A stretch of 64,000 nt of DNA from an uncultured Anaerolineales bacterium (GTDB lineage: Bacteria; Planctomycetota; Phycisphaerae; FEN-1346): the NCBI GenBank assembly GCA_964461715.1, contig CAYWVR010000002.1, forward strand, positions 76,453-140,452, in the 5' to 3' direction. Position numbers and translations under genes: made by a program. Under the pieces are notes generated by a model that worked only from the letters and a program-made list of their open reading frames with translations, was not told where the DNA came from and searched no databases. Positions 31,030-48,498 of this stretch are shown in pieces; position 1 is the stretch's first letter, and every line of letters starts with the position of its first letter.

Positions 31030-31425
31030 ATGGAATCCTGGTTCCGCAACATGGATTCGCCGCCCATGCACTTCGCCGTGGGCATGGTGTGCGGCGGGGC
31101 GCTCTGGATGCTGGTCGTCCTGATTCGGCCGCGGTGGTGGGTCTACACGCCGATTGCCATGACCCTGGGCGGGCTCTGGGCCGAGGGCCCGGACCTCCCC
31201 CTGCTGTTCCACTACTACCCGAGCCTCTCGCCCGACTGGGTCCGCGGCAACGGCTGGTCCGAGGCCCTGCACGGCAAGTGGGCTAATCTCTTCTTCTTTC
31301 ACGGATGGATCGACACCTCCGGCGAGGGGAGCATGGTCCGGGGATGGGCGCTGACGATTGCGCTCTACGGGGGATGGTGCGCCGTCTTCATGGTCCGCGA
31401 GTGGCTCAGGCGGAGGACCGGGTAA
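31030..31425 (+). CDS. small Trp-rich integral membrane protein (131 aa), unknown function
   Basis: ATG is 1 nt after the upstream stop. There are 3-4 predicted TM helices (…HFAVGMVCGGALWMLVVLI…, …GWALTIALYGGWCAVFMV…). It is wedged between two glycosyltransferase genes. Confidence 0.45.
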   Translation: MESWFRNMDSPPMHFAVGMVCGGALWMLVVLIRPRWWVYTPIAMTLGGLWAEGPDLPLLFHYYPSLSPDWVRGNGWSEALHGKWANLFFFHGWIDTSGEGSMVRGWALTIALYGGWCAVFMVREWLRRRTG

Positions 31426-31429
31426 GGCG

Positions 31430-33103
31430 ATGATCGAAGGCCGGACCATCCTGTGCTTTGCGAGCGGCTACGACGCCCCGCCCACAAGCAAGCACCACGT
31501 CATGCGCCGTCTGGCGGAGCGGAACGTCGTTCTCTGGGTCAACTACCACGCGTCGCGGGTCCCCTCGGCCGGCGCGTCGGACGCCGCCTACATCGTCGCC
31601 AAGCTCGGACAGGTGGCCGGGGGCCTTCGCCGGGCGCATCCGAACCTCTACGTCCTGACCCCCCTGGTCGTCCCTTTGCCCACCTCGCGCTTGGCGAGAG
31701 AGACGAATCGGATACTGCTGGTCATGCAGGTGCGGGCGGCGCTGGCGCGGGTCCGACAGGGGCCGCTCCAGGTCTGGTCCTTCGCCCCGGACGTTGCCTA
31801 TGCTCTGGACGCCTTCGACGCCGAGGCCGTCGTCTACTACTGTGTCGACGACTTCGCGTCGTTCTCCGGCTACGACCGCGGGCAGGTCCTGGCCGACGAG
31901 GAGACTCTCTGCCGCCGCGCCGACCTCGTCGTCACCACCAGCCGCGCGCTCCAGGACGCCAAGGCGCCGCTGAATCCGAACACGATCCTCGTGCCGCACG
32001 GCGTGGACTACGCTCACTTCGCGCGCGCAATCGAGAAGGACCTGCCGGTTCCCGAGGACCTGGCGGACATCCCGCACCCGGTCCTGGGATTCTTCGGGCT
32101 CATCCGCGACTGGGTGGACCTGGACCTCGTGGCCGAGGTGGCGCGGCGGCGGCCCGCGTGGCACGTCGTCCTGGTCGGCGATTCGACGGTGGATCTCACC
32201 CCGTACCGGGACTTGCCGAACCTGCATTTCGTCGGCCGCAAGCCCTACGAAGACCTCCCCGCCTGGTGCCGCCGCTTCGACGTCGGCCTTATCCCGTTCA
32301 AGATCAACGACCTGACGGAGGCCGTGAACCCGATCAAGCTTCGGGAGTACCTGGCAGCGGGTCTGCCCGTGCTTTCGACGCCGCTGCCGGAGGTCGTGGC
32401 CTGCGGCTTCCCGGTGCGCGTCGTCGAGGGCCCGGACGGCTTCGTGGGGGCGTGCGAGGCCGCGCTGGCCGAAGGCGCCGGCATCGAAGCCCGCCGATCT
32501 CGCTCGGCCCCCATGGCCGAGGAGACGTGGGACCGCAAGGTCGACCGGATCGCCGACCGCCTGATCGCCGCCGCGTCCGATCAGCCCGCGAGAGGGGCCG
32601 CGACACGGCGGCGCCGCGTCATGGTCGGCGTCGCGGGCGGGGGATTCGTCATCCAGTGCAAGAATCTCCTCCGCGCCTGCCCCGAGACGGTCGAGCTCCT
32701 CGTGACGGGTCCCGAGCACGCCGTGGCCCAGTACGACGCGTGGCGAGACCGATGGCTCTCGGACGACGGGTCGTGGTTCGCCACGCGCCAGCTCCGGAGC
32801 CACGGACGTCTCCAGTCCGCACTGGCGGCGGCCCTGGGGTCGTTACGGTGTCTGGAGCTGGTGTACGAGCACCGCCCGGACGCGGTCGTGGCAGTCGGGC
32901 ATCGCATCGCCGTCTTCCTGCTGGCAGCCGGACGGCTTCTCGGGACCCGGACGGCTTTCGTCGAGTGCATCACGCGGGTTCGGCGCCCGTCGCGGACCGG
33001 CCGGATCGTCTCGGGCCTCGGGCTGGCGGATCGTGTTTTCGTCCAGTGGCCACAGACCCGTCGCCTCTACCGGAGGGCCGTCTACGGCGGCCGCATCCTA
33101 TGA
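31430..33103 (+). CDS. GT4-family glycosyltransferase fused to a C-terminal Alg14-like (EpsE/Cps14F-type) membrane-anchoring domain
   Basis: An AAGG SD precedes the ATG. The N-terminal ~370 aa has the GT1 C-lobe (…VLGFFGLIRDWVDLDLV…HVVLVGD…FDVGLIPFKINDLTEAVNPIKLREYLAAGLPVLST…). The C-terminal ~170 aa (…VMVGVAGGGFVIQCKNLL…LLVTGPEH…PDAVVAVGHRIAVFLLAAGRLLG…FVECITRV…) is Alg14-like. Confidence 0.65.
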   Translation: MIEGRTILCFASGYDAPPTSKHHVMRRLAERNVVLWVNYHASRVPSAGASDAAYIVAKLGQVAGGLRRAHPNLYVLTPLVVPLPTSRLARETNRILLVMQVRAALARVRQGPLQVWSFAPDVAYALDAFDAEAVVYYCVDDFASFSGYDRGQVLADEETLCRRADLVVTTSRALQDAKAPLNPNTILVPHGVDYAHFARAIEKDLPVPEDLADIPHPVLGFFGLIRDWVDLDLVAEVARRRPAWHVVLVGDSTVDLTPYRDLPNLHFVGRKPYEDLPAWCRRFDVGLIPFKINDLTEAVNPIKLREYLAAGLPVLSTPLPEVVACGFPVRVVEGPDGFVGACEAALAEGAGIEARRSRSAPMAEETWDRKVDRIADRLIAAASDQPARGAATRRRRVMVGVAGGGFVIQCKNLLRACPETVELLVTGPEHAVAQYDAWRDRWLSDDGSWFATRQLRSHGRLQSALAAALGSLRCLELVYEHRPDAVVAVGHRIAVFLLAAGRLLGTRTAFVECITRVRRPSRTGRIVSGLGLADRVFVQWPQTRRLYRRAVYGGRIL

Positions 33104-33552
33104 TCCTCGTGACCGTGGGCACGACCTATTACGACGAGCTGGTGCGTGAGGTCGACCGGCTGGTGGTCGTCGGGGCCATCACCGAGCCGGTCTTCGCCCA
33201 GATCGGCATGGGGAAGTACGAGCCGCAGCACATGGAATGGACTCGCTACGTTGACCGTCTCGAGCCGCTCTATCGGGAGGCGAGCCTCGTCATCTGCCAC
33301 GGCGGCGTAGGGACGGTGTTCGAGCTGTTGGCGCTGGGGCGGCCGACGATCGCCGTCGCCAACCGGGCCCTCGCGGACGATCACCAGGCCGACCTGCTCC
33401 GCGCCATTGCCGGGCGAGGCTGGTGCACGTGCTGCTTCTCGCCGACCGAGCTCGAAGCGGCGCTCAAGACGCCCCGCCCGGCGATTCCCTATCCGGACGA
33501 GCCGGTCCTGGCAGGCCGCATCTGGGACTATCTGACCACCCCGAGGACGTGA
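33100..33552 (+). CDS. Alg13-like (EpsF/Cps14G-type, Glyco_tran_28_C) glycosyltransferase catalytic partner
   Basis: ATGA start/stop overlap with the upstream fusion gene. The sequence MILVTVGTTYYDELVREVDRL…ASLVICHGGVGTVFELLALGRPTIAVAN… is the Alg13/MurG-C-like fold. It lies immediately after the Alg14-like domain, as in Cps14F/G pairs. Confidence 0.7.
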   Translation: MILVTVGTTYYDELVREVDRLVVVGAITEPVFAQIGMGKYEPQHMEWTRYVDRLEPLYREASLVICHGGVGTVFELLALGRPTIAVANRALADDHQADLLRAIAGRGWCTCCFSPTELEAALKTPRPAIPYPDEPVLAGRIWDYLTTPRT

Positions 33553-35033: not shown

Positions 35034-36448
35034 CACTTGATGCCGAGCTGATGATCGACCAGTTTATCCTGGGCCGGGACGCCGACGCGATCCCGGACGG
35101 GTGGCCCGTGCGCGCTCACGACGGCCGGCGTCTCGGCCATCACCCTCATCTGCCCGTCGCGGAGATCACCGACGGCGAGGGGACGTTCCTCGGCTGGCTC
35201 CTCGGTTGGGCCGTCGGTCCGGACGGCCGGATGGTGCGGAAGAAAGCCGTCTTCAAACAGGCTTTCGAGGCGGCGGTCGCCGAGCACGGGGGGCGCTTCG
35301 CCGCGGTGCGCTTTGCGCCGTCGGGCCCACGTTTCTACCTGGGTCCGTGCGGAGCGTTGGCGGCGGTGTACTCGCGCGAGCGAGAGGTCGTGGCGTCCTC
35401 GCTCTACATGATTCCGGGGGCGCGCGACGCCGAGACGCGCTTGATGCCCGAGCTGGGTGTGCCGGAGAGCGACCACTTCTACCCCTTCGGCCTCACCCCC
35501 CGCCGGGGGATCGAGCGACTGATCCCGCACCACTACCTCGACCTCGCGACCTGGCAGCCCGTGCGCCACTGGCCCGCCGGCGACATCCCCGAGACGCGGG
35601 ACGTCGACGCGACCGGCGAGGCGATCGGGGCGCTCGTCGAGCGGCAGATCGCGGGCGTCATCAAGGCCGACGGACCGATCTACATGTCGCTGACCGCGGG
35701 CCGGGACTCGCGGCTGATGGCGGCCTGCGCGCGGGACCATGCCGCGCACGTCACCTTCTTCACGATGATCGTACCGAGCGAGGGAGGGCGGCTGGATCGG
35801 CAGGCCGCTCGGAAGCTGGCCCGGCGCTGCGGCCTGGACCACCTCGTTCTGCCGCGCAAGACCCCCACAGAGGCCGACAAGCGCCTTCACATGCAGCGCA
35901 CAGGCGATTGCGTAGGCTCATGGCAAAACCTGGCGACGATGGGGCAACTGCCCGAGCGGCGTCCCGTGCTCCTCGGCATGGCCGGCGAGTTGGGCCGGGG
36001 GTTCCACTGGAGACGCGGTGACACCGAATCGAGCCGGATCACGCCCGCCGATCTCCTCGATCGCCGTGGCTTGCCGCACACGCGCGCCATCCTGGACCGC
36101 GCCGAGGCGTGGCTCGCCGGCGTGCCGGCAACCAACGCCCTGACCATCTGGGGCCTCTACTACCTGGAGCAGTACCTGGGGTGCTGGAGCGGACCGGCTC
36201 AGTACAACCCGCACAACGGGTGTTACCGCCTGTCGCCGTACTGCCATCGCGAGATTCACCAAGCCATGATGAGCCTGCCCCGGGAGTATCGCCTCCGCTG
36301 CCGCCTCGAGGACGACCTCGTCGGTCGGCGGTGGCCGGAGATGCTGACCGTCCCGTTCAACTGGCCGATGGGTCTGGGGCGCTACGTCGCGTTCCTGAAG
36401 CGGCGTGCGGGGAAGCTGGTGGGCAAACTCGGCGCGACCGACGCCTAG
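35030..36448 (+). CDS. asparagine-synthetase-like PP-loop protein; paralogue 2
   Basis: GTG start overlaps the upstream stop (GTGA). …DGPIYMSLTAGRDSRLMAACARDHAA… is a PP-loop-like motif at the equivalent position. The overall architecture parallels paralogue 1, and there is no N-terminal Cys. Confidence 0.5.
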   Translation: MTLDAELMIDQFILGRDADAIPDGWPVRAHDGRRLGHHPHLPVAEITDGEGTFLGWLLGWAVGPDGRMVRKKAVFKQAFEAAVAEHGGRFAAVRFAPSGPRFYLGPCGALAAVYSREREVVASSLYMIPGARDAETRLMPELGVPESDHFYPFGLTPRRGIERLIPHHYLDLATWQPVRHWPAGDIPETRDVDATGEAIGALVERQIAGVIKADGPIYMSLTAGRDSRLMAACARDHAAHVTFFTMIVPSEGGRLDRQAARKLARRCGLDHLVLPRKTPTEADKRLHMQRTGDCVGSWQNLATMGQLPERRPVLLGMAGELGRGFHWRRGDTESSRITPADLLDRRGLPHTRAILDRAEAWLAGVPATNALTIWGLYYLEQYLGCWSGPAQYNPHNGCYRLSPYCHREIHQAMMSLPREYRLRCRLEDDLVGRRWPEMLTVPFNWPMGLGRYVAFLKRRAGKLVGKLGATDA

Positions 36449-36461
36449 ACGGATAGAGACG

Positions 36462-38030
36462 ATGCCGGAACTCGTGGATAAGACGCCAACCGAGGTCCCG
36501 CCCGGGGCCGCGGCCGCCAAGCCCGCCGGGGGCGTGAGCAGCCGGGAGCTGACCCGTTCGGCCGGCCGCGGGGCCCTGTGGCAGTTCGCCGGCGCGGGAT
36601 GGATGACGCTTGTCCAGCTCGGATCAAGCGCGGTTCTGGCACGCGTGCTCTTCCCGGAGGACTTCGGCCTCTTGGGAATGGCCCTTTTGGGCCACGCCCT
36701 GATCCGGCGGCTCGGGACCCTGGGGACGACGGCGGGCCTCATCGCGAAGGTGGACGTGACGGAGGACGACCTCTCGACCGCCTTCTGGACGACGTTCGCC
36801 GTGCAGGGGGCGCTCTTCGGGGTCGCGGTGGCGGCGGCGCCGCTGGCGGCCCTCTTCTTCGACACACCGGAGGTCACGTGGGTGATGCGGGCCGTGGCCT
36901 TGACGTTCGTGCTGACGGCGCTGGGGGCCGTGCCGGGCGCGATCCTGCGGAAAAAGCTTCGTTTCGGGGCCCTGAAGATCATCGAGTGCGGCGGCGCGAT
37001 GCTCCAGGCGGGCCTGGCCATCCTTTTCGCGGTGGTCTACGACATGAACTACTGGGCCTTGGTGGCCGGGATGCTGATCTCGGAGGCGTGCCAGGGGGTG
37101 GCGACGCTCATCCTGGCCCGGTGGCGGCCGAGCCTGAGGTTCCGGCGGGAGAGCTTCCGGTACATGTTCCGCTTCGGCTACAACGAGTTCGGCTCGGAGC
37201 TGGCGGGGTATTTCCACCACAACATCGACTATCTGCTGGTGGGCCGGCTACTGGGGCCGGCGCTGCTGGGCCTCTATGAGTTCGCCTACCGCATACCGCA
37301 CATGATCGTGAACCGGCTGGCGATGCCCGTCGGCCGGGTGCTCTTCCCGTCGCTGGCGAAGATCCAGTCCGACAACGCGAGGCTGGCGAAGGGCTACACG
37401 AAGTGCGCCCAGTACGTCTCGATCGCCGTCTTTCCGCTGATGACGGGGTTGGCGGTGCTGGCGCGGCCGACCGTGCTCGTCCTCTGGGGCGAGAAGTGGG
37501 TAGACGCCATTCTTCCGCTGCAGATCCTGTGCGGCAGCGCCGCGGTGCGGTCGGCCCTTTCAGGAGTCGGCACAATCTTCCTCTGCAAGAACCGCCCGGA
37601 CATCCCCCTCAAGTTCAGCCTGGCGACGCTGGCGTTCACCTTTGCGGCCGTGGCCACCCTGGGTTACTTCTTCGGGATGGTGGGCGTGGCGACAGGCATG
37701 CTGGTATCCCTGGCCCCGTACGTGATCTACCTTGGGCTGGCCTTCCGGATGGTCGATACACCGGTGCGGCAGTTCTTCGCCGCCCTGGGCCCGGTCGTGC
37801 TGTGCGCGGCGGTCTGCGGCCTGGCGGCGTGGGGGACGATGCGCCTGGTGTGCCTCGCGGAAGGGCCGGATTACGTGATTCTGCTGGCCGCGGTGCCGGC
37901 GGGCGCGGCGGCCTACGCGGCCGGCATGCGCCTGCTGTATCCGAAGCTGGTGGCGGACGTGTGGGAGACGGCGCGCGTCGTCCTCGGACGCCGATCGAGC
38001 GAAGCCGTGGCGGAGGAACAAGCGCCGTGA
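36462..38030 (+). CDS. Wzx-type oligosaccharide-lipid flippase (MOP/PST family polysaccharide biosynthesis protein)
   Basis: About 12 predicted TM helices. The conserved PST N-terminal region is …SAGRGALWQFAGAGWMTLVQLGSSAVLARVLFPEDFGLLGMAL… Length 522 aa. Confidence 0.75.
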   Translation: MPELVDKTPTEVPPGAAAAKPAGGVSSRELTRSAGRGALWQFAGAGWMTLVQLGSSAVLARVLFPEDFGLLGMALLGHALIRRLGTLGTTAGLIAKVDVTEDDLSTAFWTTFAVQGALFGVAVAAAPLAALFFDTPEVTWVMRAVALTFVLTALGAVPGAILRKKLRFGALKIIECGGAMLQAGLAILFAVVYDMNYWALVAGMLISEACQGVATLILARWRPSLRFRRESFRYMFRFGYNEFGSELAGYFHHNIDYLLVGRLLGPALLGLYEFAYRIPHMIVNRLAMPVGRVLFPSLAKIQSDNARLAKGYTKCAQYVSIAVFPLMTGLAVLARPTVLVLWGEKWVDAILPLQILCGSAAVRSALSGVGTIFLCKNRPDIPLKFSLATLAFTFAAVATLGYFFGMVGVATGMLVSLAPYVIYLGLAFRMVDTPVRQFFAALGPVVLCAAVCGLAAWGTMRLVCLAEGPDYVILLAAVPAGAAAYAAGMRLLYPKLVADVWETARVVLGRRSSEAVAEEQAP

Positions 38031-38097: not shown

Positions 38098-39477
38098 ATG
38101 ACGCCACGCGTCTCATCCCGAGACGACGTCCGACGTCGCCGCCCCAAGGGTGCGCGCCCTCATGTCTGCATGTTCGTCAACAACCCGGGCCTGCGGGACC
38201 CGCGCGTGACGCGTGAGGCCGAGGTCGCGGTCGAGGCGGGATTCGACGTGACGGTCGTCGCCTGCCAGAACCACGACGAGGACGGTCCGACGCGCGTCCT
38301 CCAGCGGGGCGTGGAGTTCCTGCGGCCCAAGGTCGGGTCCAGCCGTCTGGCCGGGGCCTTGAGGCACGTCCTCGGCCTCCGCCGGACGTTCTCCGCATCG
38401 CCGGCCGCGCCCCGCGAGGCGTCTCCGTCCGCAGACGCGTCGGCGACGGCCGCGGAAAAGGCAAGGCCCAGTCTGATGCGTCGCCTGCACGGATGGGGAT
38501 GGGGATGGCGGCGGACGCTGGTCAGCCTCGGCCAACGGATTCGTCTCGGCCTTGCCGTGTCGGCCGACGCCTACCATGCGCACGACTGCGACACCCTTCC
38601 GATCGCGTGGCTCTGCGCGCGCCTGCGCGGGAAACCCTTCATCTACGACTCGCACGAACTCTGGGTCGATTGGAAACGGATGCGCGGGGCCGGCCGATGG
38701 CGCCTCGCACTTTGGAGGGCGCTCGAAGCGACCTTCTGCCGGCAGAGCGCCCTATGCGTGACGGTCAGCGAGGGACTGGCGGAGATTCTGCGGCGCGAAC
38801 TGGGCTTGAGGCGACTGGCCGTGGTCCGGAACTGCGCCCGGCGGCCGCGGGCGCTCCCGACGGACACCCACCTCGCCGGCCGCGCCCAGGTCCGGGCGGA
38901 GCTGGGCCTCGGGCCCGACGCGCCGGTCACGATCTATCAGGGCGGCCTGTGGCCCTACCGGGGACTGGAGACGCTGATCCGTGCCGCGACGCACGTGCCG
39001 AAGGTCTCGGTCCTCATCGTCGGCCCGATCACACCGTACGCGGAGTCGCTCCGCGCCCTGTCGATCGAGCACCGTGCGGCCAACGTCCGCTTCCTGGGCC
39101 ACCAGCCGGAGGAGCGGCGGTCGGCGCTGATGGGCGCGGCCGACCTGGGAGTCGTCCTGATCCAGGACGGAGGGTTGTCGTACCGGCACTCCTTTGCCAA
39201 CAAGAACGGCGAGTACTTCGCGCACGGCCTTCCGGTCCTGGCGTCGGACCTGCCGGAGCATCGTCGGGTGCTGATGCGTGTGGGCGCAGCCCTGCTCGCC
39301 GACCCGGAGTCGGCGTCCGACGTGGCGGCCAAGATACAGGCATTCTTCAGGATGACGAAAGCCCAGCGGCGCGGGCTCGCCGCCCTCGCCCGGTCCTTTG
39401 TGGACCGGGAGCTGAACATGGACGTGCAGTTCCGCCCCGTCCTAGACTTCTATCTGGCCCTCGGGCGGAACCGGTGA
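38098..39477 (+). CDS. GT4-family glycosyltransferase (tandem paralogue 1)
   Basis: GT1 C-lobe motifs (…IYQGGLWPYRGLETLIRA…VLIVGP…FLGHQPEE…ADLGVVLIQD…NKNGEYFAHGLPVLASD…). The N-terminal 175 codons are near-identical to the next gene at DNA level. Confidence 0.8.
   Translation: MTPRVSSRDDVRRRRPKGARPHVCMFVNNPGLRDPRVTREAEVAVEAGFDVTVVACQNHDEDGPTRVLQRGVEFLRPKVGSSRLAGALRHVLGLRRTFSASPAAPREASPSADASATAAEKARPSLMRRLHGWGWGWRRTLVSLGQRIRLGLAVSADAYHAHDCDTLPIAWLCARLRGKPFIYDSHELWVDWKRMRGAGRWRLALWRALEATFCRQSALCVTVSEGLAEILRRELGLRRLAVVRNCARRPRALPTDTHLAGRAQVRAELGLGPDAPVTIYQGGLWPYRGLETLIRAATHVPKVSVLIVGPITPYAESLRALSIEHRAANVRFLGHQPEERRSALMGAADLGVVLIQDGGLSYRHSFANKNGEYFAHGLPVLASDLPEHRRVLMRVGAALLADPESASDVAAKIQAFFRMTKAQRRGLAALARSFVDRELNMDVQFRPVLDFYLALGRNR
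38164..38678. repeat. ~515-bp direct repeat, copy 1 (≥99% identical to 39552-40066)
   Basis: Direct comparison of the two stretches gave only two mismatches (gtgacg/gtaacg and gaact/gagct) over ~515 bp. Flanking sequence on both sides is diverged. Confidence 0.8.
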
Positions 39478-39482
39478 CGGAC

Positions 39483-40856
39483 ATGACCTCGAGTCGCTCA
39501 ACATGCCGCGACACCGTCGTGGAGGCGATCGCCCGCCCCGCGCGCGTGCGCGTCTGCATGTTCGTCAACAACCCGGGCCTGCGGGACCCGCGCGTAACGC
39601 GTGAGGCCGAGGTCGCGGTCGAGGCGGGATTCGACGTGACGGTCGTCGCCTGCCAGAACCACGACGAGGACGGTCCGACGCGCGTCCTCCAGCGGGGCGT
39701 GGAGTTCCTGCGGCCCAAGGTCGGGTCCAGCCGTCTGGCCGGGGCCTTGAGGCACGTCCTCGGCCTCCGCCGGACGTTCTCCGCATCGCCGGCCGCGCCC
39801 CGCGAGGCGTCTCCGTCCGCAGACGCGTCGGCGACGGCCGCGGAAAAGGCAAGGCCCAGTCTGATGCGTCGCCTGCACGGATGGGGATGGGGATGGCGGC
39901 GGACGCTGGTCAGCCTCGGCCAACGGATTCGTCTCGGCCTTGCCGTGTCGGCCGACGCCTACCATGCGCACGACTGCGACACCCTTCCGATCGCGTGGCT
40001 CTGCGCGCGCCTGCGCGGGAAACCCTTCATCTACGACTCGCACGAGCTCTGGGTCGATTGGAAACGCATGGGCGGCGTGGGTCGCGTACCCGTCGCCCTC
40101 TGGGAGATGGCCGAGCGGGCGTTCGTCCGGCAGGCCGCCGCGTGCGTGACGGTCAGCGAGGACATGGCGGCGTTGCTGAAGCGCCGCCATAGCCTCGGCT
40201 GCATGCTCGTCGTCCGGAACTGTCCCCGCCGAGGGACCTCGGAAGCGACCGTGCCGCGCGACGTCGCCCGCCGGGCGTGCGGCATCGAGAACGGCCAGCG
40301 GATCGTCCTCTACCAGGGCGGCCTTTGGGCGAACCGCGGACTCGACGTCCTGGTCGAGAGCGCCCGGCACGTCCCGGAGGTGGACGTTCTGCTCGTGGGG
40401 CGGCTCAATTCGTACGGGGCCGGGCTCCAGCAGATCCGTCGCGACCTGGGCTGCCGCAACGTCCGTTTCCTGGGCCACAGGGACGAGGCCGAGCGCAACG
40501 CCTTGATGGCCGCGGCGGACCTGGGCGTCGTCCTGACGCAGGACCGCTCGCTCTCATATCGGCTGACCCTGTCAAACAAGATCTTCGAGTACTTCGCGAA
40601 CGGGCTGCCCGTGCTGGCGTCGGACCTGCCGCCCCACCGGCGGATTGAGGCGCAGACGGGCGCCTGCCGGCTCACGAATCCGGAGGACGCGGTGATTCTG
40701 GCCGAGGACATCCGCCGCTTCTTCTCGATGGACGAAACCGGTCGGCGCCGGATGGGCGAGCGGGCCCGCCGCGCCGCCCTCGACCAACTCAACATGGAAC
40801 GCCAGATGACCCCGCTCCTCGAACTCTACCGCGGCGTCGCGCGGATCGGGCGATAG
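39483..40856 (+). CDS. GT4-family glycosyltransferase (tandem paralogue 2)
   Basis: Same architecture as the preceding gene. The 3' two-thirds are diverged (…LYQGGLWANRGLDVLVESA…LLVGR…FLGHRDEAE…ADLGVVLTQD…NKIFEYFANGLPVLASD…). Confidence 0.8.
   Translation: MTSSRSTCRDTVVEAIARPARVRVCMFVNNPGLRDPRVTREAEVAVEAGFDVTVVACQNHDEDGPTRVLQRGVEFLRPKVGSSRLAGALRHVLGLRRTFSASPAAPREASPSADASATAAEKARPSLMRRLHGWGWGWRRTLVSLGQRIRLGLAVSADAYHAHDCDTLPIAWLCARLRGKPFIYDSHELWVDWKRMGGVGRVPVALWEMAERAFVRQAAACVTVSEDMAALLKRRHSLGCMLVVRNCPRRGTSEATVPRDVARRACGIENGQRIVLYQGGLWANRGLDVLVESARHVPEVDVLLVGRLNSYGAGLQQIRRDLGCRNVRFLGHRDEAERNALMAAADLGVVLTQDRSLSYRLTLSNKIFEYFANGLPVLASDLPPHRRIEAQTGACRLTNPEDAVILAEDIRRFFSMDETGRRRMGERARRAALDQLNMERQMTPLLELYRGVARIGR
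39552..40066. repeat. ~515-bp direct repeat, copy 2
   Basis: See copy 1; the offset between copies is exactly 1388 bp. Confidence 0.8.
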
Positions 40857-40865
40857 GAGAGCGTC

Positions 40866-41843
40866 GTGCCTGAATCCCGACCGGAAACCTCCCGGCTGAC
40901 CCTCGCCGCGGTTATCCCCGTCTACAACCAGCGGGAGACCGTGTGTGCGGCCATCGACAGCGTCCTGGCTCAGACGCGGCCGGCCGACGAGATCATCGTC
41001 GTCGACGACGGGTCGACGGACGGGTCGGGGGACCTGGTGGCCCGCCAGTACGGCGACCGCGTCCGCCTCATCCGCCAGGAGAACCGCGGCGCGGGCGGAG
41101 CCTTCAACACCGGCATCCGCGCCGGCTCCACCGACCTCATCTCGCTCCTCGGCGCCGACGACGGATGGATGCCCGACCGGCTCGAGAAACAGGTCGCCTT
41201 TATGGAGGCCCATCCCGACTGCATGCTCAGCTTCACGGCCGCCGAGCTTCGCGACGAGATCAACGACCGCGTCCTTCTCGAGAACACCGAGATCGACAAG
41301 GAGCGGTACGTCACCCGGTACTTCTTCCGCGACGAGAACCTTCCCGCCGGCAACGGCGTCATGGTGCGGCGGGAGGTGTTCGAGGAGCTCGGGTACTTCG
41401 ACGAATCGCTCCGCCGGTGCCAGGACACGGACATGTGGCTGCGGATCATGATCCGCTACGGCTTCGAGCACATCCCCGAGCCGCTCGTCTGGGTCCACCG
41501 GGGGCAGCATCGCACGATGACGGACCACTCGAAAGGCTTCCGGTACCACGAGGTGTATTACGCGAAGCACCGGTACACCTTTGGTCGCGGGTGGCGCGGC
41601 CAGGCCATCTGGCGGGCCGGATACGGCGCGGCCCTGCGGTTCCACGCCATCTGGTACTTCCGCCAGAAGAAGGGCGGCCTCGCGATGCGCGAGCTCATGA
41701 AGGCCGTCCTCGTCTGGCCCTTCTTCAACCCGACGTGGGTGGTGCGGGCGGCTTCCGAGTACCTCCTCGGCACCGCCGCCTACGATCATGTCGTCTCCCG
41801 GGTCAAACGGTTCCCCGGACTGCGTCCCGAGGCGAGGGGATAG
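40866..41843 (+). CDS. family-2 glycosyltransferase (soluble GT-A)
   Basis: AAVIPVYNQRETVCAAIDSVLAQTRPADEIIVVDDGSTDGS… plus DXD (LLGADDGW). 325 aa. Confidence 0.8.
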   Translation: MPESRPETSRLTLAAVIPVYNQRETVCAAIDSVLAQTRPADEIIVVDDGSTDGSGDLVARQYGDRVRLIRQENRGAGGAFNTGIRAGSTDLISLLGADDGWMPDRLEKQVAFMEAHPDCMLSFTAAELRDEINDRVLLENTEIDKERYVTRYFFRDENLPAGNGVMVRREVFEELGYFDESLRRCQDTDMWLRIMIRYGFEHIPEPLVWVHRGQHRTMTDHSKGFRYHEVYYAKHRYTFGRGWRGQAIWRAGYGAALRFHAIWYFRQKKGGLAMRELMKAVLVWPFFNPTWVVRAASEYLLGTAAYDHVVSRVKRFPGLRPEARG

Positions 41844-41847
41844 GGCC

Positions 41848-43047
41848 GTGAGAGTCGCCCTTCTATCCGGACCGGCCGTCAGCGCCCGCCACGGGTCGGG
41901 CGTCCAGATCCTGCGCCTCTTCGAGGGCGCCCGGGACGACGTCCGACACCTGTACTGGCGGGGCACCGCCGGGCCGGAGAGCGACCTGCCCCACGCCCAC
42001 TACCTCAAGACGCTGCCCGGCCTGAAGCGGCTTCGCGGCGGGCGACTGATGGATCTTGCGGAGCGGGCCCTAGGGGTGGCGTGGTGGGACGGAGACCGGG
42101 TCAACGCCGCCAAGCTCGAGCGGCTGCTCCGAGACCGCGGGTGGGGTTGCGATGTCGCCTACGTCTGTGTCGCGCGCGAAACCGAGGCCCGCGAGGCCCT
42201 CTCCATCCTCGACGTCCTCGACCGACCCTACGTGGTCCACCTGATGGACCTCTGCCACGACGAGGGCCTCGACCCGGAGCGGATGCCCGGCTACCGGCGG
42301 CTGCTCGGGGAGGCGGCAACGGTCTTCGCGGCGAGCGCGCCGATGGCCGAACAGGCCCGGAAGGTGCGGGCCGACAACGTCCGGGCGGTCGCGCTCGCGA
42401 AGACGGTCGGCGGGCGGGCGTCGCCGCCGCCCGATGCCGACGGTCGGACGCGCCTTATTCTCCTCGGCAGCCTGGGAAGCGCCGACAACCCGGCCCTCGC
42501 CCTTCTGGACGAGGCCTGGCCGGCGCTTGAGCGACGGGTGCCCGGATTCGAGTGCCTCTACATGGGCCAGCATGTCCACCTGCTACCGTCCCGCCTGCGC
42601 GAACGCGTGACGTGCCCCGGGCGGCTCGACCTGGAGACCTTCGAGCGGAAGCTCCTGACGGGCCATCTCGCGTATCTGCCCTCGCCGCGCGCGATGGATT
42701 GCTACGGGCGCTTTGCGCCGGTGGCCCGAATCGTCGATTACTTCATGGCGGGCCTGCCCGTTCTGTATTCGATCGCGAAGGGCTCGGCGCCCGAGGGGCT
42801 GCTCCGCGAGATGGCCCCCGCGACGGCCCGCGTAGATTCCCCCTCGGGGCTGGTCGACGCGGCGGCGCGGCTGGCAGCGCCCGCGGCGTGGCAAGCCGCC
42901 GGCGACCGGGTCCGCGCCTACGCCGAGACGCACTTCGACCTGGCGCGCCTGAGAGACGAGGTCATGACGGCGATCGAGCAGGCCACCTCGGCTCCGCGGG
43001 GCGCAGGTGCCGAACCGTCCCGAGAGGACGTTCATGCGAAACGGTGA
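41848..43047 (+). CDS. hypothetical protein, possibly a divergent GT-B glycosyltransferase-like protein
   Basis: GTG start after the upstream TAG with GGAG upstream. The C-terminal segment …RIVDYFMAGLPVLYSIAKGS… resembles the GT1 E-x7-E region weakly. No firm family. Confidence 0.45.
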   Translation: MRVALLSGPAVSARHGSGVQILRLFEGARDDVRHLYWRGTAGPESDLPHAHYLKTLPGLKRLRGGRLMDLAERALGVAWWDGDRVNAAKLERLLRDRGWGCDVAYVCVARETEAREALSILDVLDRPYVVHLMDLCHDEGLDPERMPGYRRLLGEAATVFAASAPMAEQARKVRADNVRAVALAKTVGGRASPPPDADGRTRLILLGSLGSADNPALALLDEAWPALERRVPGFECLYMGQHVHLLPSRLRERVTCPGRLDLETFERKLLTGHLAYLPSPRAMDCYGRFAPVARIVDYFMAGLPVLYSIAKGSAPEGLLREMAPATARVDSPSGLVDAAARLAAPAAWQAAGDRVRAYAETHFDLARLRDEVMTAIEQATSAPRGAGAEPSREDVHAKR

Positions 43048-44248
43048 GCCGCGATACCTTCTGCTCTCGGAGCAGTATCTGCCCTTGAAGGGCGGGCACA
43101 TCGTCCTCATGCACGAACTGGCGAAACGGATCGGCGGCGTGACGGTGGTGACGGCGGCAGCGCCGGAACGCCCGGCGACCGAGACCATCGACGGCGTCGA
43201 GGTGCGGCGGGTGGACCTCGACCGCCGGGCGTACCTCCGACCGGAGTCCCTGGCCCTGTACGCGAACCTCTTCATCCAGACGGCCCGGCTGGCGAAGCGG
43301 GTACGGCCGGCGGCCTTGCTGGCCGCCCGGGTCCTGCCGGAGGGGCTCATCGCGACGGCCGTGGGCCGCCTCCGAGACCTGCCCGCGCTGATCTTCGCGC
43401 ACGGCGAGGAGATCACGCCGTGGCTGCCCGGCCTCGATCGCGCCTCCTCCCGCCGCATGACCTCCCGCATCAAGGGCCGGTGCGTATGGCACGCGTATCG
43501 CGGGGCCGCCCGCATCATCGCCAACAGCCGCTTCACACGCGACCTCCTGGCCCGCGGCGGGCTGCCGAAGAAGCGCATCCGCATCGTCCATCCCGGCACC
43601 GACCCGGAGCGATTCCGTCCCGGCCTGCCGGACGGCGGGACGGCCGCGAGGCTCGGCCTCGAAGACAAGCGAGTGCTTTTGACCGTGGGCCGGGTGACGT
43701 GGCGAAAGGGCCAGGACACGGTCGTCCGGGCCCTGCCGACGATCCTCGAGACGGTCCCCGACACCGTCTACGCGGTGGCGGGAACGGGCCCGATGGAGGA
43801 CGACCTCCGCCGCCTGGCGCGCGAGTGCGGCGTCGGGGACCACGTCCGATTGCTCGGCGAAGTGTCCGATGAGGACCTGCTCGGGCTCTACCACCTGGCC
43901 GACGTGTTCGTCATGGCGGGAAGGGTGTCCGAGGGGACCCGGGACGTCGAAGGCTTCGGCATCGTCTTCCTGGAAGCCGGGGCCTGCGGGGTGCCGGTGA
44001 TCGCGGGCCAGGCCGGCGGGGTCGGCGACGCCGTCGTCAACGGTCAAACGGGTCTGCGGGTGGACGGACGCGACCCCGACGCCGTGGCGGAGGCCTGCCG
44101 GCGGCTGCTGACGGATGCCGGGCTGGCCCGCCGCATGGGCGAGGCCGGCCGGCGCCGGGCGGTCGAGGAGTTCTCGTGGGACCGGGTTGCGGAACAGGCC
44201 CGGCAGGTGCTTGAAGAAGCGTCAGGAGACCGGCGATGCCTCCTCTGA
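43034..44248 (+). CDS. GT4-family glycosyltransferase
   Basis: …GRVTWRKGQDTVVRALP… and …EGFGIVFLEAGACGVPVIAGQAGGVGDAVVNGQTGLRV… are the GT1 C-lobe EX7E region. Confidence 0.8.
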   Translation: MRNGEPRYLLLSEQYLPLKGGHIVLMHELAKRIGGVTVVTAAAPERPATETIDGVEVRRVDLDRRAYLRPESLALYANLFIQTARLAKRVRPAALLAARVLPEGLIATAVGRLRDLPALIFAHGEEITPWLPGLDRASSRRMTSRIKGRCVWHAYRGAARIIANSRFTRDLLARGGLPKKRIRIVHPGTDPERFRPGLPDGGTAARLGLEDKRVLLTVGRVTWRKGQDTVVRALPTILETVPDTVYAVAGTGPMEDDLRRLARECGVGDHVRLLGEVSDEDLLGLYHLADVFVMAGRVSEGTRDVEGFGIVFLEAGACGVPVIAGQAGGVGDAVVNGQTGLRVDGRDPDAVAEACRRLLTDAGLARRMGEAGRRRAVEEFSWDRVAEQARQVLEEASGDRRCLL

Positions 44249-45606
44249 AGACCTTGCTGTTCCTGGCCGGTTTTGTGGCGGCCACCGTCGGGTGTCTCTG
44301 GTTCCCGCTGGCGGGGGTCCTGGGATACGTCCTGCACTACAGCATCGGACCGGAACGCCAGTGGTGGGAGGCCCCGATCAGCCACCTCCACCTGCGCTAC
44401 TCGTTCACGCTGGCAGCCGCCACGGCCATCGGTTTGCTGCTCCACCATCGCAAGCTCCGTTGGGGCGACCGGCTCCTGACGAAGCAGGAAGTCCTGATGC
44501 TCGTGTTCCTGGGCGTGGTGTGGCTCACGTTCCTGATGGGCGACACGACGCGGGAGTCAAGCGCGGTCGTGGATCACCCCTCCATGAAGGTCACAAAAGT
44601 TTTTATCTTCACGCTCATGTTAACACACATCGTGACGAGGCAACAAGACCTGAACCTCCTGTTCTGGGCCTTCACCAGCGGCGCTTTGATCCTCGGTCTC
44701 CAGGCTTACTACACGCCGCGGTACATGTTCATGCAAGGGCGGCTCGAGACGATCGGCGGCCCGGACTTCGCCGAGGCCAACAGCCTGGCGGCGTACCTGG
44801 CGGCCCTGCTGCCGATCATCGGCGTCCAGTTCATGCGGAGCCGCTGGCCGGCCCGCATCGCGTGCCTGGCGGCGGGGGGGCTCGCCTGCAACGCCATCAT
44901 CCTGACCCGAAGCCGCGGGGCGATCGTCGCGCTGGCCGCCGGGGGAATCGCGGCCCTCTTCATGGCCCCGAAACGGTACCGCGCAGCGGTGGCCGTCGGG
45001 CTGGTCGTGGCTCTGGTCGGGTTCGTGTATCTCGGCGACGTCGGCTTCATGGGCCGCATGAGCACGCTGAACTCCCCCGCGGGCGAACTCGACGAGTCCG
45101 CCCAGAGCCGCATCGCCATCTGGCGGGGAGGCCTGAAGATGATCGCGGCCCACCCGCTGGGCGTCGGGCCGGGCAACTTCCTCCAGACCATCGGCCACTA
45201 CGCGCCGAACCACGCGAATCGCGACGCACACAGCACGCTCATCCGCTGCGCCGCCGAGCTGGGCTTGGTGGGGCTCATCGTGCTCATCGTGCTGATCGTC
45301 AACGCCTTCCGCGTCTTGCGCAACACCCACGCCCGTCTCGTGCGCCACCGGTCCAAGGCCGACGCCCCCCTCCTCCTCTACACGTACGCCGCCATGTTGG
45401 CCCTGATCATCTACCTGATATGCGGCTTCTTCGGCTCGTTCGTGTACATCGAGGTCTTCTGGTGGCTGCTCGCGCTGCCCGTGTGCCTGAGCCGCGCCGT
45501 CGAGAACGCGGTCGCGCAGCCCTTGGAGGAGGGTGCGCCGAGCCGCAAACGCGCCGTCTCCCGCACGCGAAGCCGGACGCCCCGACCGCAAGTGGAGGTC
45601 ACGTGA
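44236..45606 (+). CDS. O-antigen ligase/Wzy-family polysaccharide polymerase (Wzy_C domain membrane protein)
   Basis: About 10-12 TM helices. The central large periplasmic loop …ILTRSRGAIVALAAGGIAALFM… and …IAHPLGVGPGNF…HSTLIRCAAELGLVGLIVL… are typical of the Wzy_C/O-antigen ligase family. Confidence 0.7.
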   Translation: MPPLKTLLFLAGFVAATVGCLWFPLAGVLGYVLHYSIGPERQWWEAPISHLHLRYSFTLAAATAIGLLLHHRKLRWGDRLLTKQEVLMLVFLGVVWLTFLMGDTTRESSAVVDHPSMKVTKVFIFTLMLTHIVTRQQDLNLLFWAFTSGALILGLQAYYTPRYMFMQGRLETIGGPDFAEANSLAAYLAALLPIIGVQFMRSRWPARIACLAAGGLACNAIILTRSRGAIVALAAGGIAALFMAPKRYRAAVAVGLVVALVGFVYLGDVGFMGRMSTLNSPAGELDESAQSRIAIWRGGLKMIAAHPLGVGPGNFLQTIGHYAPNHANRDAHSTLIRCAAELGLVGLIVLIVLIVNAFRVLRNTHARLVRHRSKADAPLLLYTYAAMLALIIYLICGFFGSFVYIEVFWWLLALPVCLSRAVENAVAQPLEEGAPSRKRAVSRTRSRTPRPQVEVT

Positions 45607-46982
45607 CCGTGCCGCACGCACTCCGAACCGCGATCTCCGCCGCCTATCACGCCCTCGCGCCGGCCCTCCGGCCGCGCGGGTTCATGGGCCGGTTTCGCGC
45701 GGCCCGGGCGGCCCGGGACGGGGCGGAATGGGACCCGCCCGAGGCGGTCTGGGCCCGTCAGCGCGACCGTATCAACGCGCTGCTCGAAACGGCGCGGACG
45801 CACGTGCCGTACTACCGTCGTCTGGCGGCGGTCGGCCGGATCCCCCCCCATATCGAGCGGCCGGAGGACCTCGCCGAGGCGCCGATCCTCACGAAGGCAA
45901 TCATCCGGGCCGAAGGGCGCGACCTGCTGGCCGAGAACTTCCCGCCCGAACGACTCCACGCCACGGCGACCGGCGGCTCGACCGGCGAACCGCTCCACTT
46001 CTGGAACGACGCCGACGCCGTCCTCGCCGCCAACGCCGGCGAAGCCTGGGCCCTGTCCGTTGCCGGCGTCGGCCTGGCGGACCCCGTGGCGTACCTCTGG
46101 GGGGCGGCCCGGTTCGAGCGGGCGATGGGGCGGGACCTCAAGGACCACCTCGTCCAGCTCCTGAACAACCGGTGCGTCGTCGACTGCTTCCACATGAAAC
46201 GCGACGATCTGGCCGCCGCCCATCGCCGGTTCACGCGGTTCGGCCCGGCGGCGCTGCTCGGGTACTCGAGCGCCCTGGTGGAGCTGGCCCGGTACCTCAA
46301 GACCGAGGGCCGCCGCCCGAGCTACCCGGACCGCGCGGTCATCAGCGCGGCCGAGGTCCTCGACGACGTCTCGCGCGAGGTGCTGGAGGAGACTTTCGGC
46401 GGGCCCGTCTTCGACCGGTACGGAAGCCGCGAGATGGGCCTCATCGCCATGGAGTGCGATCGGCATCGGGGCCTGCACGTCGACGCGGAGAACGTTTTCG
46501 TCGAGCTGGTCGAGGCGCCGGACGCGCCGGGCCTTTCGCGCATCGTCGTTACACGGCTGAACCAGTTCAGCATGCCGTTCCTGCGGTACGACAGCGGCGA
46601 CCTGGCCGAGGGCCCCCTCGAGACGTGCCCCTGCGGACGGGGGTACGCGGTGCTCAAGCGCGTCGTTGGACGCGTCACCGAGACGATCCGGTTCCCGGAC
46701 GGCGGCTCGCTGCCCGGCGAGATCTTCCCGCACCTCTTCAAGGACTGCGGGATCCTCTCGTATCGGGTGGTGCAGGCTGAGGACTACGCCGTCGACGTCG
46801 AGCTCGTGCGCACGCCCGACCAGACCGAGGCCCAGGACGCCACCCTCCGCCGCATCGTCCGCGAGCATCTCGGCAAGGACGTGCCGGTGACGTTCCGCTA
46901 CGCCGAGGCGATCGAGCGATCGCGCACGGGCAAGCTCCTGCCCGTCAGCAGCCATGCCCCGCGCGACGGAGGCTCCAGATGA
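45603..46982 (+). CDS. CapK/PaaK-like adenylate-forming enzyme (second of three in window)
   Basis: GTG start overlapping the upstream stop. …HATATGGSTGEPLHFW… is an AMP-binding-like motif. …FLRYDSGDL… (PaaK-type hinge; compare RYRTGD) and the C-terminal …RSRTGKLLPV… are present. Confidence 0.7.
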   Translation: MTVPHALRTAISAAYHALAPALRPRGFMGRFRAARAARDGAEWDPPEAVWARQRDRINALLETARTHVPYYRRLAAVGRIPPHIERPEDLAEAPILTKAIIRAEGRDLLAENFPPERLHATATGGSTGEPLHFWNDADAVLAANAGEAWALSVAGVGLADPVAYLWGAARFERAMGRDLKDHLVQLLNNRCVVDCFHMKRDDLAAAHRRFTRFGPAALLGYSSALVELARYLKTEGRRPSYPDRAVISAAEVLDDVSREVLEETFGGPVFDRYGSREMGLIAMECDRHRGLHVDAENVFVELVEAPDAPGLSRIVVTRLNQFSMPFLRYDSGDLAEGPLETCPCGRGYAVLKRVVGRVTETIRFPDGGSLPGEIFPHLFKDCGILSYRVVQAEDYAVDVELVRTPDQTEAQDATLRRIVREHLGKDVPVTFRYAEAIERSRTGKLLPVSSHAPRDGGSR

Positions 46983-48496
46983 AGGATGCAAGGATGAGCC
47001 ACCCCCGGGTCGCGATGGCGCGAAGCGACGGGGACCCCGCGCGCCCCTACCCCGAGTTCCCCTACGACCCGGGGGAGGCGTACCCGGAGCTCGCGGGGCG
47101 CGGCGTCGGGACAGTCGCCCCGCCCAACCCGGTCTACGCGGCCGTGCGGGCGGCGCTTGCGCGTCTCGGTTTCGACCGGGACCGCGCGGGCTCACCCGAG
47201 TGGGACCCCCTCGGCGACCTCATCGAACCCGGGCAGCGGGTCCTCGTCAAGCCCAACTGGGTCCGCCACGATGCGGCCGACGGCGGGCCGGGGCCGTGCC
47301 TGCGGACGCACACGAGCGTGCTCCGCGCGGTCCTCGATTACGTGCTTCTCGCCTTAAAGGGCGATGGCCGCGTCATCGTCGGGGACGCCCCCCTCCAATC
47401 GGCCGACGGGGGACGCCTCTTCGCCCAGACGCGCATCCACGAACTGCTCGACCGTCTCGACGCCGGCGGCATCGAGATCACGGTCCGCGACTTCCGCGAG
47501 AACGTCTGCGACCTGGACGCGCGCGGCCGCATCGTCGGCCACCGCAAGCTCGACGGCGACCCCGACGGATACGCGACCGTGGACCTCGGCGCGGAGAGCC
47601 TGTTCGGGCCGGTGGACGAGGCCTTCGAGCGGTTCCGCGTCACGAACTACGACCCGGCCGTCATGCGCGCGCACCACGCGCGCGGGCGCCACGAGTACCT
47701 CATCGCCGGATCGGTGCTCGCCTCCGACACCGTCGTCAGCGTCCCCAAGCTGAAGACCCATCGCAAGGCGGGCCTGACGTGTGCCCTGAAGAACGTCGTC
47801 GGCATCAACGGGAGCAAGGACTACCTGCCGCACCACCGCAAAGGCCCCGTCGACGAGGGCGGCGACGAGTACGAAAGACGGTGCGTATGGAAGCGGCTCG
47901 CGTCGCACTGCACGGACCTTGTCGAGTCCGACCCGAGCCCCGGCCTGCGGGCGACGGCCCGGCTGGTCCTTCGCGTCGCGCGGCGGGTGGCCCGAAGCGC
48001 CGCCCCGGACCCGTACACCGAGGGGAGCTGGTTCGGCAACGATACCGTCTGGCGGACCGTGCTGGACCTGAATCGCGTGTTGGTCTTCGCGCGGCCGGAC
48101 GGGACGCTCGCGCCGGAGCCTCAGCGGCGCGTGCTGCACCTGGTCGACGCGATCGTCGCCGGCGAGGGCGAAGGGCCGCTGGTCCCCGACCCGGCGCCGC
48201 TCGGCCTCGTCCTGGCGGGGACGGAGGCCGCCGCCGTGGACGCCTTTGCCGCACGGCTGGCGGGTCTCGACCCGGAGAAGATTCCACTCGTCCGGAACGG
48301 CCTCGCACAGCGCGACGGCCTCGCCGAGAAGATGCGCTTCGTCCGCGACGACGCCGACGCGTCTCTGGCCCTGCATGAGGTCCGGCCCGTGCGCTGTCTC
48401 AGACCGCCCGCCGGGTGGGCCGGACACGTCGAGCTCGAGACCTGCCCCCTCCGCGAGACCGACATTCCGGTGGCCGGCTCGGTCCCCGAGGAGTGA
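46979..48496 (+). CDS. conserved hypothetical cytoplasmic protein (505 aa; possibly DUF362-like)
   Basis: Contiguous with flanking genes (4-nt overlaps) and has coding-type codon bias. The motif …VLVKPNWV… and a Gly-rich segment are suggestive only. No catalytic family assigned. Confidence 0.45.
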   Translation: MKDARMSHPRVAMARSDGDPARPYPEFPYDPGEAYPELAGRGVGTVAPPNPVYAAVRAALARLGFDRDRAGSPEWDPLGDLIEPGQRVLVKPNWVRHDAADGGPGPCLRTHTSVLRAVLDYVLLALKGDGRVIVGDAPLQSADGGRLFAQTRIHELLDRLDAGGIEITVRDFRENVCDLDARGRIVGHRKLDGDPDGYATVDLGAESLFGPVDEAFERFRVTNYDPAVMRAHHARGRHEYLIAGSVLASDTVVSVPKLKTHRKAGLTCALKNVVGINGSKDYLPHHRKGPVDEGGDEYERRCVWKRLASHCTDLVESDPSPGLRATARLVLRVARRVARSAAPDPYTEGSWFGNDTVWRTVLDLNRVLVFARPDGTLAPEPQRRVLHLVDAIVAGEGEGPLVPDPAPLGLVLAGTEAAAVDAFAARLAGLDPEKIPLVRNGLAQRDGLAEKMRFVRDDADASLALHEVRPVRCLRPPAGWAGHVELETCPLRETDIPVAGSVPEE

Positions 48497-48498
48497 TC

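Follow-up and report, generated by a model that had tools for sequence, protein, structure and literature searches.

The tufA and tufB genes of Salmonella lie far apart and are functionally equivalent, and the lgt genes of Neisseria switch mainly by homopolymer slippage, with hybrid lgt genes also in existence. Gene conversion between duplicate genes has been described for tufA and tufB (Paulsson et al. 2017, PMC5485169). At the Neisseria lgt locus, tandem homologous glycosyltransferases are rearranged between strains, and strain 15253 retains only lgtA and lgtE (PMC2192810). In the group 1 capsule operon of Vibrio vulnificus, wzb is deleted via flanking repeats, giving phase-locked acapsular variants (PMC7247339). 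Here we describe a pair of adjacent glycosyltransferase genes, GT4a and GT4b, in a 64,000-nucleotide stretch of DNA from an uncultured bacterium (GenBank assembly GCA_964461715.1, contig CAYWVR010000002.1, positions 76,453 to 140,452; hereafter the window, within which all positions are numbered). The two genes share a nearly identical 515-bp block (R) inside otherwise strongly diverged sequence. We attribute the block, with a probability of about 0.8, to recent ectopic gene conversion between tandem paralogues of ancient divergence; read in this way, it is a new case of a process already known.

The likeness to tuf (PMC5485169) lies in a non-reciprocal, homology-dependent transfer between two paralogues of the same chromosome, in the homogenization of silent sites and in tracts bounded where homology ends. 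The tuf copies are near-identical over the whole gene (PMC5485169), whereas GT4a and GT4b are homogenized over only about 37% of each gene, the remainder having ~48% protein identity and belonging to different sub-lineages; in contrast to tuf, the copies are adjacent direct repeats. With the lgt locus they have in common tandem paralogous glycosyltransferases in a surface-glycan locus and strain-to-strain gene loss changing the glycan, a loss that for the GT4 pair is putative; the enzyme families are different. As with V. vulnificus wzb, direct repeats in a polysaccharide operon provide a substrate for an irreversible deletion altering surface polysaccharide. The V. vulnificus repeats are short intergenic octamer arrays and the deletion abolishes the capsule, whereas the GT4 repeats are 515-bp coding segments and the deletion product would probably be an in-frame, active hybrid transferase.

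The shared block of GT4a and GT4b

The initial annotation had reported a near-identical segment of about 515 bp with two substitutions between the genes, and this description was exact. The two copies (Table 1) aligned without gaps at an offset of 1,388 bp, with 513/515 positions identical (99.6%). Both differences are synonymous: G/A at 38208 (Val37, GTG/GTA) and A/G at 38658 (Glu187, GAA/GAG). The self-comparison that had been proposed as a check returned this same pair, both by local alignment, which gave a single ungapped block (38164-38711 versus 39552-40099), and by k=31 self-comparison. A repeat search recovered the pair as well, and no other direct repeat in the window reaches 80% identity. 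The encoded proteins are identical over residues 23-195, and the chance of a 449-base perfect run at a background identity of ~68% is ~1e-75. Analysis of 50-column windows revealed identities of 0.98-1.00 in the block, 0.60-0.72 in most later windows and 0.80 in the last full one. The right border is abrupt, with differences dense from 38679 onward (38679, 38683, 38688, 38690, 38691 and further).

Outside the block, GT4a and GT4b show 47.6% protein identity, and their 3' parts are each 42-53% identical to homologues elsewhere, i.e. similarly distant. Nei-Gojobori (NG86) analysis revealed proportions of synonymous (pS) and nonsynonymous (pN) differences of 0.022 and 0 in the block compared with 0.44 and 0.38 in the 3' part, where pS is near saturation at a third-position GC content (GC3) of about 0.9. 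Silent sites have thus been homogenized in the block, and the disordered part of the protein is identical too. GC and GC3 were uniform over the block and both 3' parts, and a foreign origin of segment X found no support. Leaders A and B aligned better than shuffled sequences (z=3.05, p=0.0035), a faint homology with a divergence comparable to that of the 3' parts; since the leaders are homologous, the original duplication spanned the gene from end to end, and the identical tract lies within it. A derivation of leader B as a duplicate of the region past the GT4b stop was rejected (z=-0.6, no similarity).

The block and the 3' parts also gave incongruent trees. In simple neighbor-joining trees on 196-248 columns, the block united GT4a and GT4b at 100%, whereas the 3' part placed GT4a with P0003 and P0004 (81%) and GT4b with P0005 (71%). 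When extra fragments were included, the 3' part gave GT4a with P0020 (88%), GT4a/P0020/P0003/P0004 (71%) and GT4b with P0005 (62%), so that support for the incongruence is moderate (62-88%). The GT4a C-domain motifs IQDGxLSYRxSFANKNxEY, PEHRRVL and ADPESASDVA recur in P0020 from another source, and P0026 and P0005 carry motifs of the GT4b type; conservation thus extends to both lineages and, judged by these motifs, the a-type is a conserved lineage and not a decaying copy. Taken together, an internal high-identity tract with abrupt borders, homogenized silent sites and tree incongruence form the signature of recent ectopic gene conversion, the origin that the initial annotation had put forward.

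The borders of the block fall at conserved motifs. On the left, it begins with the conserved fold (V-C-M-F-V-N-N, strand beta1), and on the right it ends just after the invariant YDSHELWVDWK motif, within the N-terminal Rossmann domain. In an AlphaFold2 (AF2) model of GT4a, the block covers beta1-beta6 of the N domain and a short helix at 189-195, and it takes in a disordered insert (82-124) with a predicted local distance difference test score (pLDDT) below 50. The divergence of the leaders and 3' ends noted earlier was borne out, but to call the diverged parts the catalytic halves was imprecise: the interdomain linker lies at ~243-256 in the model and the block ends ~50-60 residues earlier. 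A domain swap was likewise rejected, as its end would be expected at this GT-B linker and the actual end (195/196) lies between two N-domain helices. In GT-B enzymes generally, the nucleotide sugar is bound by the C domain and the acceptor mainly by the N domain. On this division, GT4a and GT4b may share much of the acceptor side and differ on the donor side. Long antisense open reading frames (ORFs; 38113-38655 and 39498-40478, both minus strand) overlap both repeat copies, and we treated them as artefacts of 70% GC DNA given their reverse-frame GC-position pattern.

We infer the following course of recombination, including the anchoring of the exchange in motifs. GT4a and GT4b are old tandem paralogues; they belong to a rare GT4 subfamily and lie in an exopolysaccharide (EPS) operon of the Wzx/Wzy type that is associated with an exosortase. 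Homologous recombination, presumably RecA-dependent, would very recently have made a non-reciprocal transfer of ~450-515 bp between the two copies, either inside a single chromosome or across sister chromosomes. Local identity in the two most conserved coding motifs, VCMFVNNPGLxDPRVTREAE (left) and YDSHELWVDWK (right), could have served as anchors. The predicted outcome is an identical beta1-beta6 of the N-terminal (acceptor-side) Rossmann domain in both enzymes, which would still differ in the remainder of the N domain, in the C domain that binds the donor and in the C-terminal helices. As a by-product, 515-bp direct repeats would have been placed 1,388 bp apart; unequal crossing-over between them would delete the GT4a 3' part and leader B and yield one in-frame hybrid (leader A, shared block and GT4b body) between the flippase and GT2 genes. 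A transfer from GT4a to GT4b is weakly suggested by the block being 57-58% identical to P0003/P0004 compared with 51% to P0005, which parallels the GT4a 3' part, and by the family-conserved His before the block, found only in GT4a.

Both genes encode GT4 glycosyltransferases, an assignment made from the first reading of the sequence and one on which Pfam and fold agree. Pfam N-terminal GT4 and C-terminal group-1 domains scored above gathering thresholds (cut-offs 25-29.7) in both proteins: GT4a matched Glyco_trans_4_4, Glyco_transf_4, Glycos_transf_1 and Glyco_trans_1_4, all at 45.9-50.2 bits, and GT4b matched these four models and Glyco_trans_1_2 at 37.4-53.7 bits. The AF2 model of GT4a (pLDDT 77.8) displayed the two-Rossmann GT-B fold with the C-terminal helix crossing back, and Foldseek matched it to MshA, SPS, GlgM, BshA, PimA and WaaG (E 1e-14 to 1e-18, probability 1.00); a profile search retrieved the same solved GT4 entries of the PDB. 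No NCBIfam equivalog model reached its cut-off with GT4a or GT4b. The solved retaining GT-B/GT4 enzymes (MshA 3C48/3C4Q, sucrose-phosphate synthase 6KIH, GlgM 6TVP, BshA, PimA and WaaG) have the two-Rossmann-domain fold and the Pfam families in common with GT4a and GT4b, but sequence identity is only 12-18%, and the GT4a/GT4b subfamily departs from them in a disordered insert of 40 residues and in N-domain motifs of its own. All subfamily-invariant residues of the family alignment, including R288, G289, N368, K369, E372 and D384, are retained in GT4a and GT4b, and both are predicted to be active.

A GAGGTGG sequence lies 8-14 nt 5' of the GT4a ATG at 38098; NCBI annotation places the start at Met 38170, which gives 435 aa (P0001). 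GT4b may start at ATG 39483 (457 aa) or at GTG 39474 (460 aa), the latter overlapping the GT4a stop as GTGA. A scan between the two genes revealed no promoter-like or terminator-like site. GT4a and GT4b probably share one transcript and may be translationally coupled.

The subfamily is rare, comprising five full-length proteins, one metagenome locus and two fragments, with the motifs HAHDCDT and YDSHELWVDW. The relatives with enough flank (L001 and L002) carry a flippase, one GT4 and a GT2, in L001 with an a-side 3' part (P0003) and in L002 with a b-type 3' part (P0005). Either an ancestor had both genes and lineages lost one, or one copy moved horizontally. A search of the genome-contig collection for close relatives with the gene pair revealed none above 40% identity, the nearest being metagenome-assembled genomes (MAGs) of Myxococcota at 37-39% protein identity; a metagenome scan gave two loci only, one of them known already, and a search of 1.84 billion proteins by representatives gave one 50% cluster (P0003) for the whole subfamily and two useful fragments. 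Distant members of the wider family also lie in pairs, adjacent or close by (L024, L035, L040, L059, L061, L072, L074 and L075, e.g. in Solirubrobacterales and Thermoleophilaceae MAGs). No near-identical segment was detected in the wider-family tandem pairs (L040, L059, L061, L074 and others); across these loci, tandem duplication of this kind of GT4 is recurrent and the mosaic is not.

Table 1. Features of the GT4a/GT4b region and contigs of independent assemblies (window positions)
Feature	Position	Strand	Details
GT4a, upstream GT-B/GT4 glycosyltransferase	38098..39477	+	459 aa from ATG 38098; ORF, Pfam, AF2, Foldseek
GT4b, downstream GT-B/GT4 glycosyltransferase	39474/39483..40856	+	ORF, Pfam; P0002 (457 aa), P0015 (460 aa)
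Repeat copy A (R)	38164..38678	+	515 bp, GT4a codons 23-194; repeat search, local alignment, k=31 self-comparison
Repeat copy B (R)	39552..40066	+	515 bp, GT4b codons 24-195 (numbered from ATG 39483)
Perfect core of copy A	38209..38657	+	449 bp, partner 39597-40045; bounded by differences at 38208 and 38658
Leader A	38098..38163	+	22 diverged codons; last codon His fits family consensus H-[IV]-C
Leader B	39483..39551	+	23 diverged codons; alignment with leader A weak but significant
Segment X	38679..39551	+	GT4a-specific 3' part and leader B
Wzx-type flippase (Polysacc_synt_3), left neighbor	36405..38030	+	Pfam; single GT4 of the subfamily next to it in relatives
GT2 glycosyltransferase, right neighbor	40866..41843	+	Pfam; conserved beside single GT4 in relatives
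Contig L084 (SRR7048227, window strain, 0-1 mismatch)	38633 to 50856		via GT4a 3' part, leader B, whole GT4b
Contig L088, left flank (SRR7048227, window strain)	ends 38183
Contig L087 (SRR7048218, third strain)	stops 38657		leader A joined to 494 nt of R; stops one base before second variable site
Contig L083/L086 (SRR7048225, second strain)			32-kb contig, window minus 1,388 bp
Contig L093 (SRR7048224, second strain)	starts 40994		like L092 of SRR7048225; same single-nucleotide polymorphism set

Independent assemblies and strain variation

Logan (k=31) assemblies of four SRA runs (SRR7048218, SRR7048224, SRR7048225 and SRR7048227) hold near-identical strains. Logan stores each 31-mer once per sample and simplifies the graph by SPAdes-like heuristics (PMC12424806). 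In SRR7048227, contig L084 showed 1 mismatch in 12.2 kb compared with the window, and its first 46 nt lie in R with the copy-A allele. As L084 carries the GT4a 3' part, leader B and GT4b independently, segment X and its junction with GT4b are real. The junction of leader A with R was present in L087, L083 and L088. The two-gene structure is the only one closing the graph in the window strain, and an exact look-up of the GT4a 3' fragment found it in SRR7048227 only. Ten alternative starts of the GT4a fragment were absent from the protein collection searched, exact look-ups of P0001, P0002, the 459-aa GT4a and the window GT2 gave no match, and a literature search on these SRA runs found nothing.

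The repeat had been flagged as an assembly hazard, and the independent k=31 assemblies did break at its ends. Short-read or k-mer assemblies will break or collapse at GT4a/GT4b; the two genes should be kept separate, and any difference in gene content seen there between MAGs or strains is suspect until there is read-level evidence. The contig ends of SRR7048227 (38183/38184 and 38632/38633) lie 10 and 5 nt off the clean two-copy k=31 repeat ends, and the extra branches there possibly reflect another haplotype of the GT4a 5' half.

The second strain (SRR7048224 and SRR7048225) differed from the window at ~6-8 sites per 10-12 kb and gave contigs of another structure. L083/L086 runs from the flippase through leader A, R with both copy-B alleles and the GT4b body to GT2, and the 1,388-bp unit absent from it consists of segment X and one R copy. 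A further 34-kb contig, which may derive from SRR7048224, has a one-gene structure like L083. These single-gene contigs match exactly the structure predicted for unequal crossing-over. The earlier proposal that recombination could delete one of the two genes is matched by these contigs; its wording as phase variation goes further than they do, as the deletion is not reversible alone and the contigs could be a graph collapse. Because Logan deduplicates 31-mers and simplifies the graph, a collapsed path is equally possible for the single-gene contigs, and we place the likelihood that they represent a real haplotype just short of even. The second-strain samples break in GT2 at a common 30-mer (40994-41023; the L083 end and the L092 and L093 starts) containing the palindrome CGTCGTCGACGACG, through which SRR7048227 is continuous.

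In the third strain, the block of L087, single-copy in that assembly, showed 3-4 differences in 494 bp, the flank 4 in 8,485 bp (Fisher p=0.005 and 0.0005), and the block was ~13-17 times more diverged from the window than the 8.5-kb flank. L087 has private, clustered changes relative to both copies at window positions 38346, 38359 and 38366 (L087 8668, 8681 and 8688). All are AT to GC; they comprise a synonymous change at Arg83 and the replacements L88V and H90R, the latter two in the disordered insert.

Alternative explanations for the shared block

Several observations weigh against recent conversion between GT4a and GT4b. Conversion between ~70%-identical sequences is normally very inefficient, so a one-off event needs either lucky short anchors or repeated homogenization. 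Among distant homologues the anchor motifs have 73-88% nucleotide identity, which supports the anchoring in part. The hints for GT4a as the donor are weak, and the 3'-part clades have moderate bootstraps (62-88%). Genome, metagenome and protein searches turned up no close sister species that carries the gene pair. The single-gene contigs fit a deletion haplotype or a collapse, given that Logan holds each 31-mer once per sample, and no single independent contig covers leader A, R and the GT4a 3' part together.

The most probable alternative is a variant of gene conversion itself, contained within the probability stated above and not additional to it: long-term partial concerted evolution, in which the 5' part was homogenized repeatedly and not in one event. 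The 3' part would have escaped as selection for different specificity built up divergence that blocked heteroduplex extension at a fixed border. The very sharp border, where identity falls from 100% to ~70% within a few bases, fits this course, and repeated conversion sidesteps the need to recombine 70%-identical DNA. The excess of differences in the L087 block would suggest a recombinationally active block, but the L087 block may be a popped-bubble consensus, and no sister species was found with the pair showing identity within the genome and divergence between genomes. We regard concerted evolution as possible, though not the expected course.

An extension of this idea, which we consider unlikely, is that recurrent conversion keeps the block identical and lets it act as a built-in recombination joint, populations switching between a two- and a one-transferase EPS operon. 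One gene would then be lost by unequal crossing-over and regained by recombination with DNA from two-gene cells, and the polymer repeat unit would vary between strains, e.g. under phage or grazing pressure. The contig-end anomalies of SRR7048227 would in that case stem from additional GT4a 5'-half haplotypes present side by side.

A recent partial duplication or illegitimate insertion, in which the 5' block was pasted before an N-truncated paralogue or a horizontally acquired a-type 3' half was joined to a duplicated 5' half, would dispense with homologous conversion. The mosaic pattern alone cannot tell conversion from a precise cut-and-paste, and relatives have only one gene at this position. 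However, each junction keeps the reading frame and the exact register of the family alignment, leaders A and B are homologous, the block ends in conserved motifs as expected of homology-dependent exchange, and composition is uniform; at least two rare events would also be required. Partial duplication, named in the initial annotation beside conversion, is disfavored by the junctions, the leaders and the composition, and we judge it improbable.

An assembly artefact, with a single true GT4 gene or with GT4b reads threaded into a different true GT4a 5' half, is less probable again. It would accord with the one-gene structure of the Logan contigs (L083/L086 and the 34-kb contig), and the displacement of the SRR7048227 contig ends by 10 and 5 nt hints at a further haplotype between them. 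Against this, segment X with leader B was assembled independently 5' of a complete GT4b in L084, the same contig passes from 46 nt of R with the copy-A allele straight into the GT4a 3' part, and in L087 leader A is joined to 494 nt of R. Had the GT4a 5' half been unique and diverged, the assemblies would have run through it unbroken, and the two window copies differ at two sites and hence do not arise from copy-paste.

Selection at the nucleotide level without recombination (an embedded RNA, an overlapping gene or extreme codon selection) is effectively refuted: nothing specific favors it, overlapping long antisense ORFs being usual in 70% GC DNA, and homologues with the same motifs show 12-27% nucleotide differences even where conservation is highest, the disordered residues 82-124, the least conserved of the protein, are likewise 100% identical, synonymous sites included, and the third strain tolerates L88V and H90R in this insert.

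Under recent gene conversion between GT4a and GT4b, the locus would be a clean natural case of conversion limited to part of one domain in two otherwise very different glycosyltransferases. It would also offer a candidate mechanism for strain-level change of EPS structure in an uncultured high-GC bacterium, one not unexpected in principle. The hybrid with an a-type/shared N part and a b-type body is encoded in a sister-strain contig and possibly fixed, although these contigs may be a graph collapse; it would be a ready-made chimera for the study of acceptor versus donor specificity in GT-B enzymes.

The exopolysaccharide locus and other genes of the window

The window has a GC content of 70%, and its positions 24091-59549 form one exosortase-type EPS locus that contains GT4a and GT4b. 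Its genes encode Poly_export, a chain-length determinant, an XrtA-type ATPase, a tyrosine kinase, a FemAB-family protein, further glycosyltransferases, Wzx and Wzy, together with AsnB-like, DUF362, ATP-grasp and CapK-like proteins and an exosortase fused to EpsI (57873-59549). The locus is of the exosortase (XrtA-like)/PEP-CTERM EPS type: scores against cut-offs were 325/260 for TIGR03019 (XrtA-associated FemAB-family), 120/105.6 for TIGR02602 (exosortase) and 70.5/42.8 for the EpsI domain, and the XrtA ATPase, chain-length and kinase models were best matches below their cut-offs.

Two other arrangements of glycosyltransferases were observed in the locus. The gene at 48415-50739 encodes a single 774-aa polypeptide in which two complete GT4 modules follow each other; this double layout is also that of P0006, P0007 and several of the best matches in the representative search, wider-family proteins of ~790-890 aa. 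The gene at 31358-33103 encodes a glycosyltransferase with a fused Alg14-like domain; after it comes a small gene (~33100-33552) of the Glyco_tran_28_C (Alg13-like) kind, and the two look like a split Alg13/Alg14-type transferase pair.

Outside the locus, the minus-strand gene at 5239-7434 encodes a 731-aa protein with a GreA/GreB domain at its C-terminus (residues 578-728), and its N-terminal extension of ~570 residues gave no family match. A gene for an FeeM-type N-acyl amino acid synthase (16474-17382, minus strand) lies upstream of the polysaccharide locus, near the gene for a priming sugar transferase (Bac_transf, 22380-23036).

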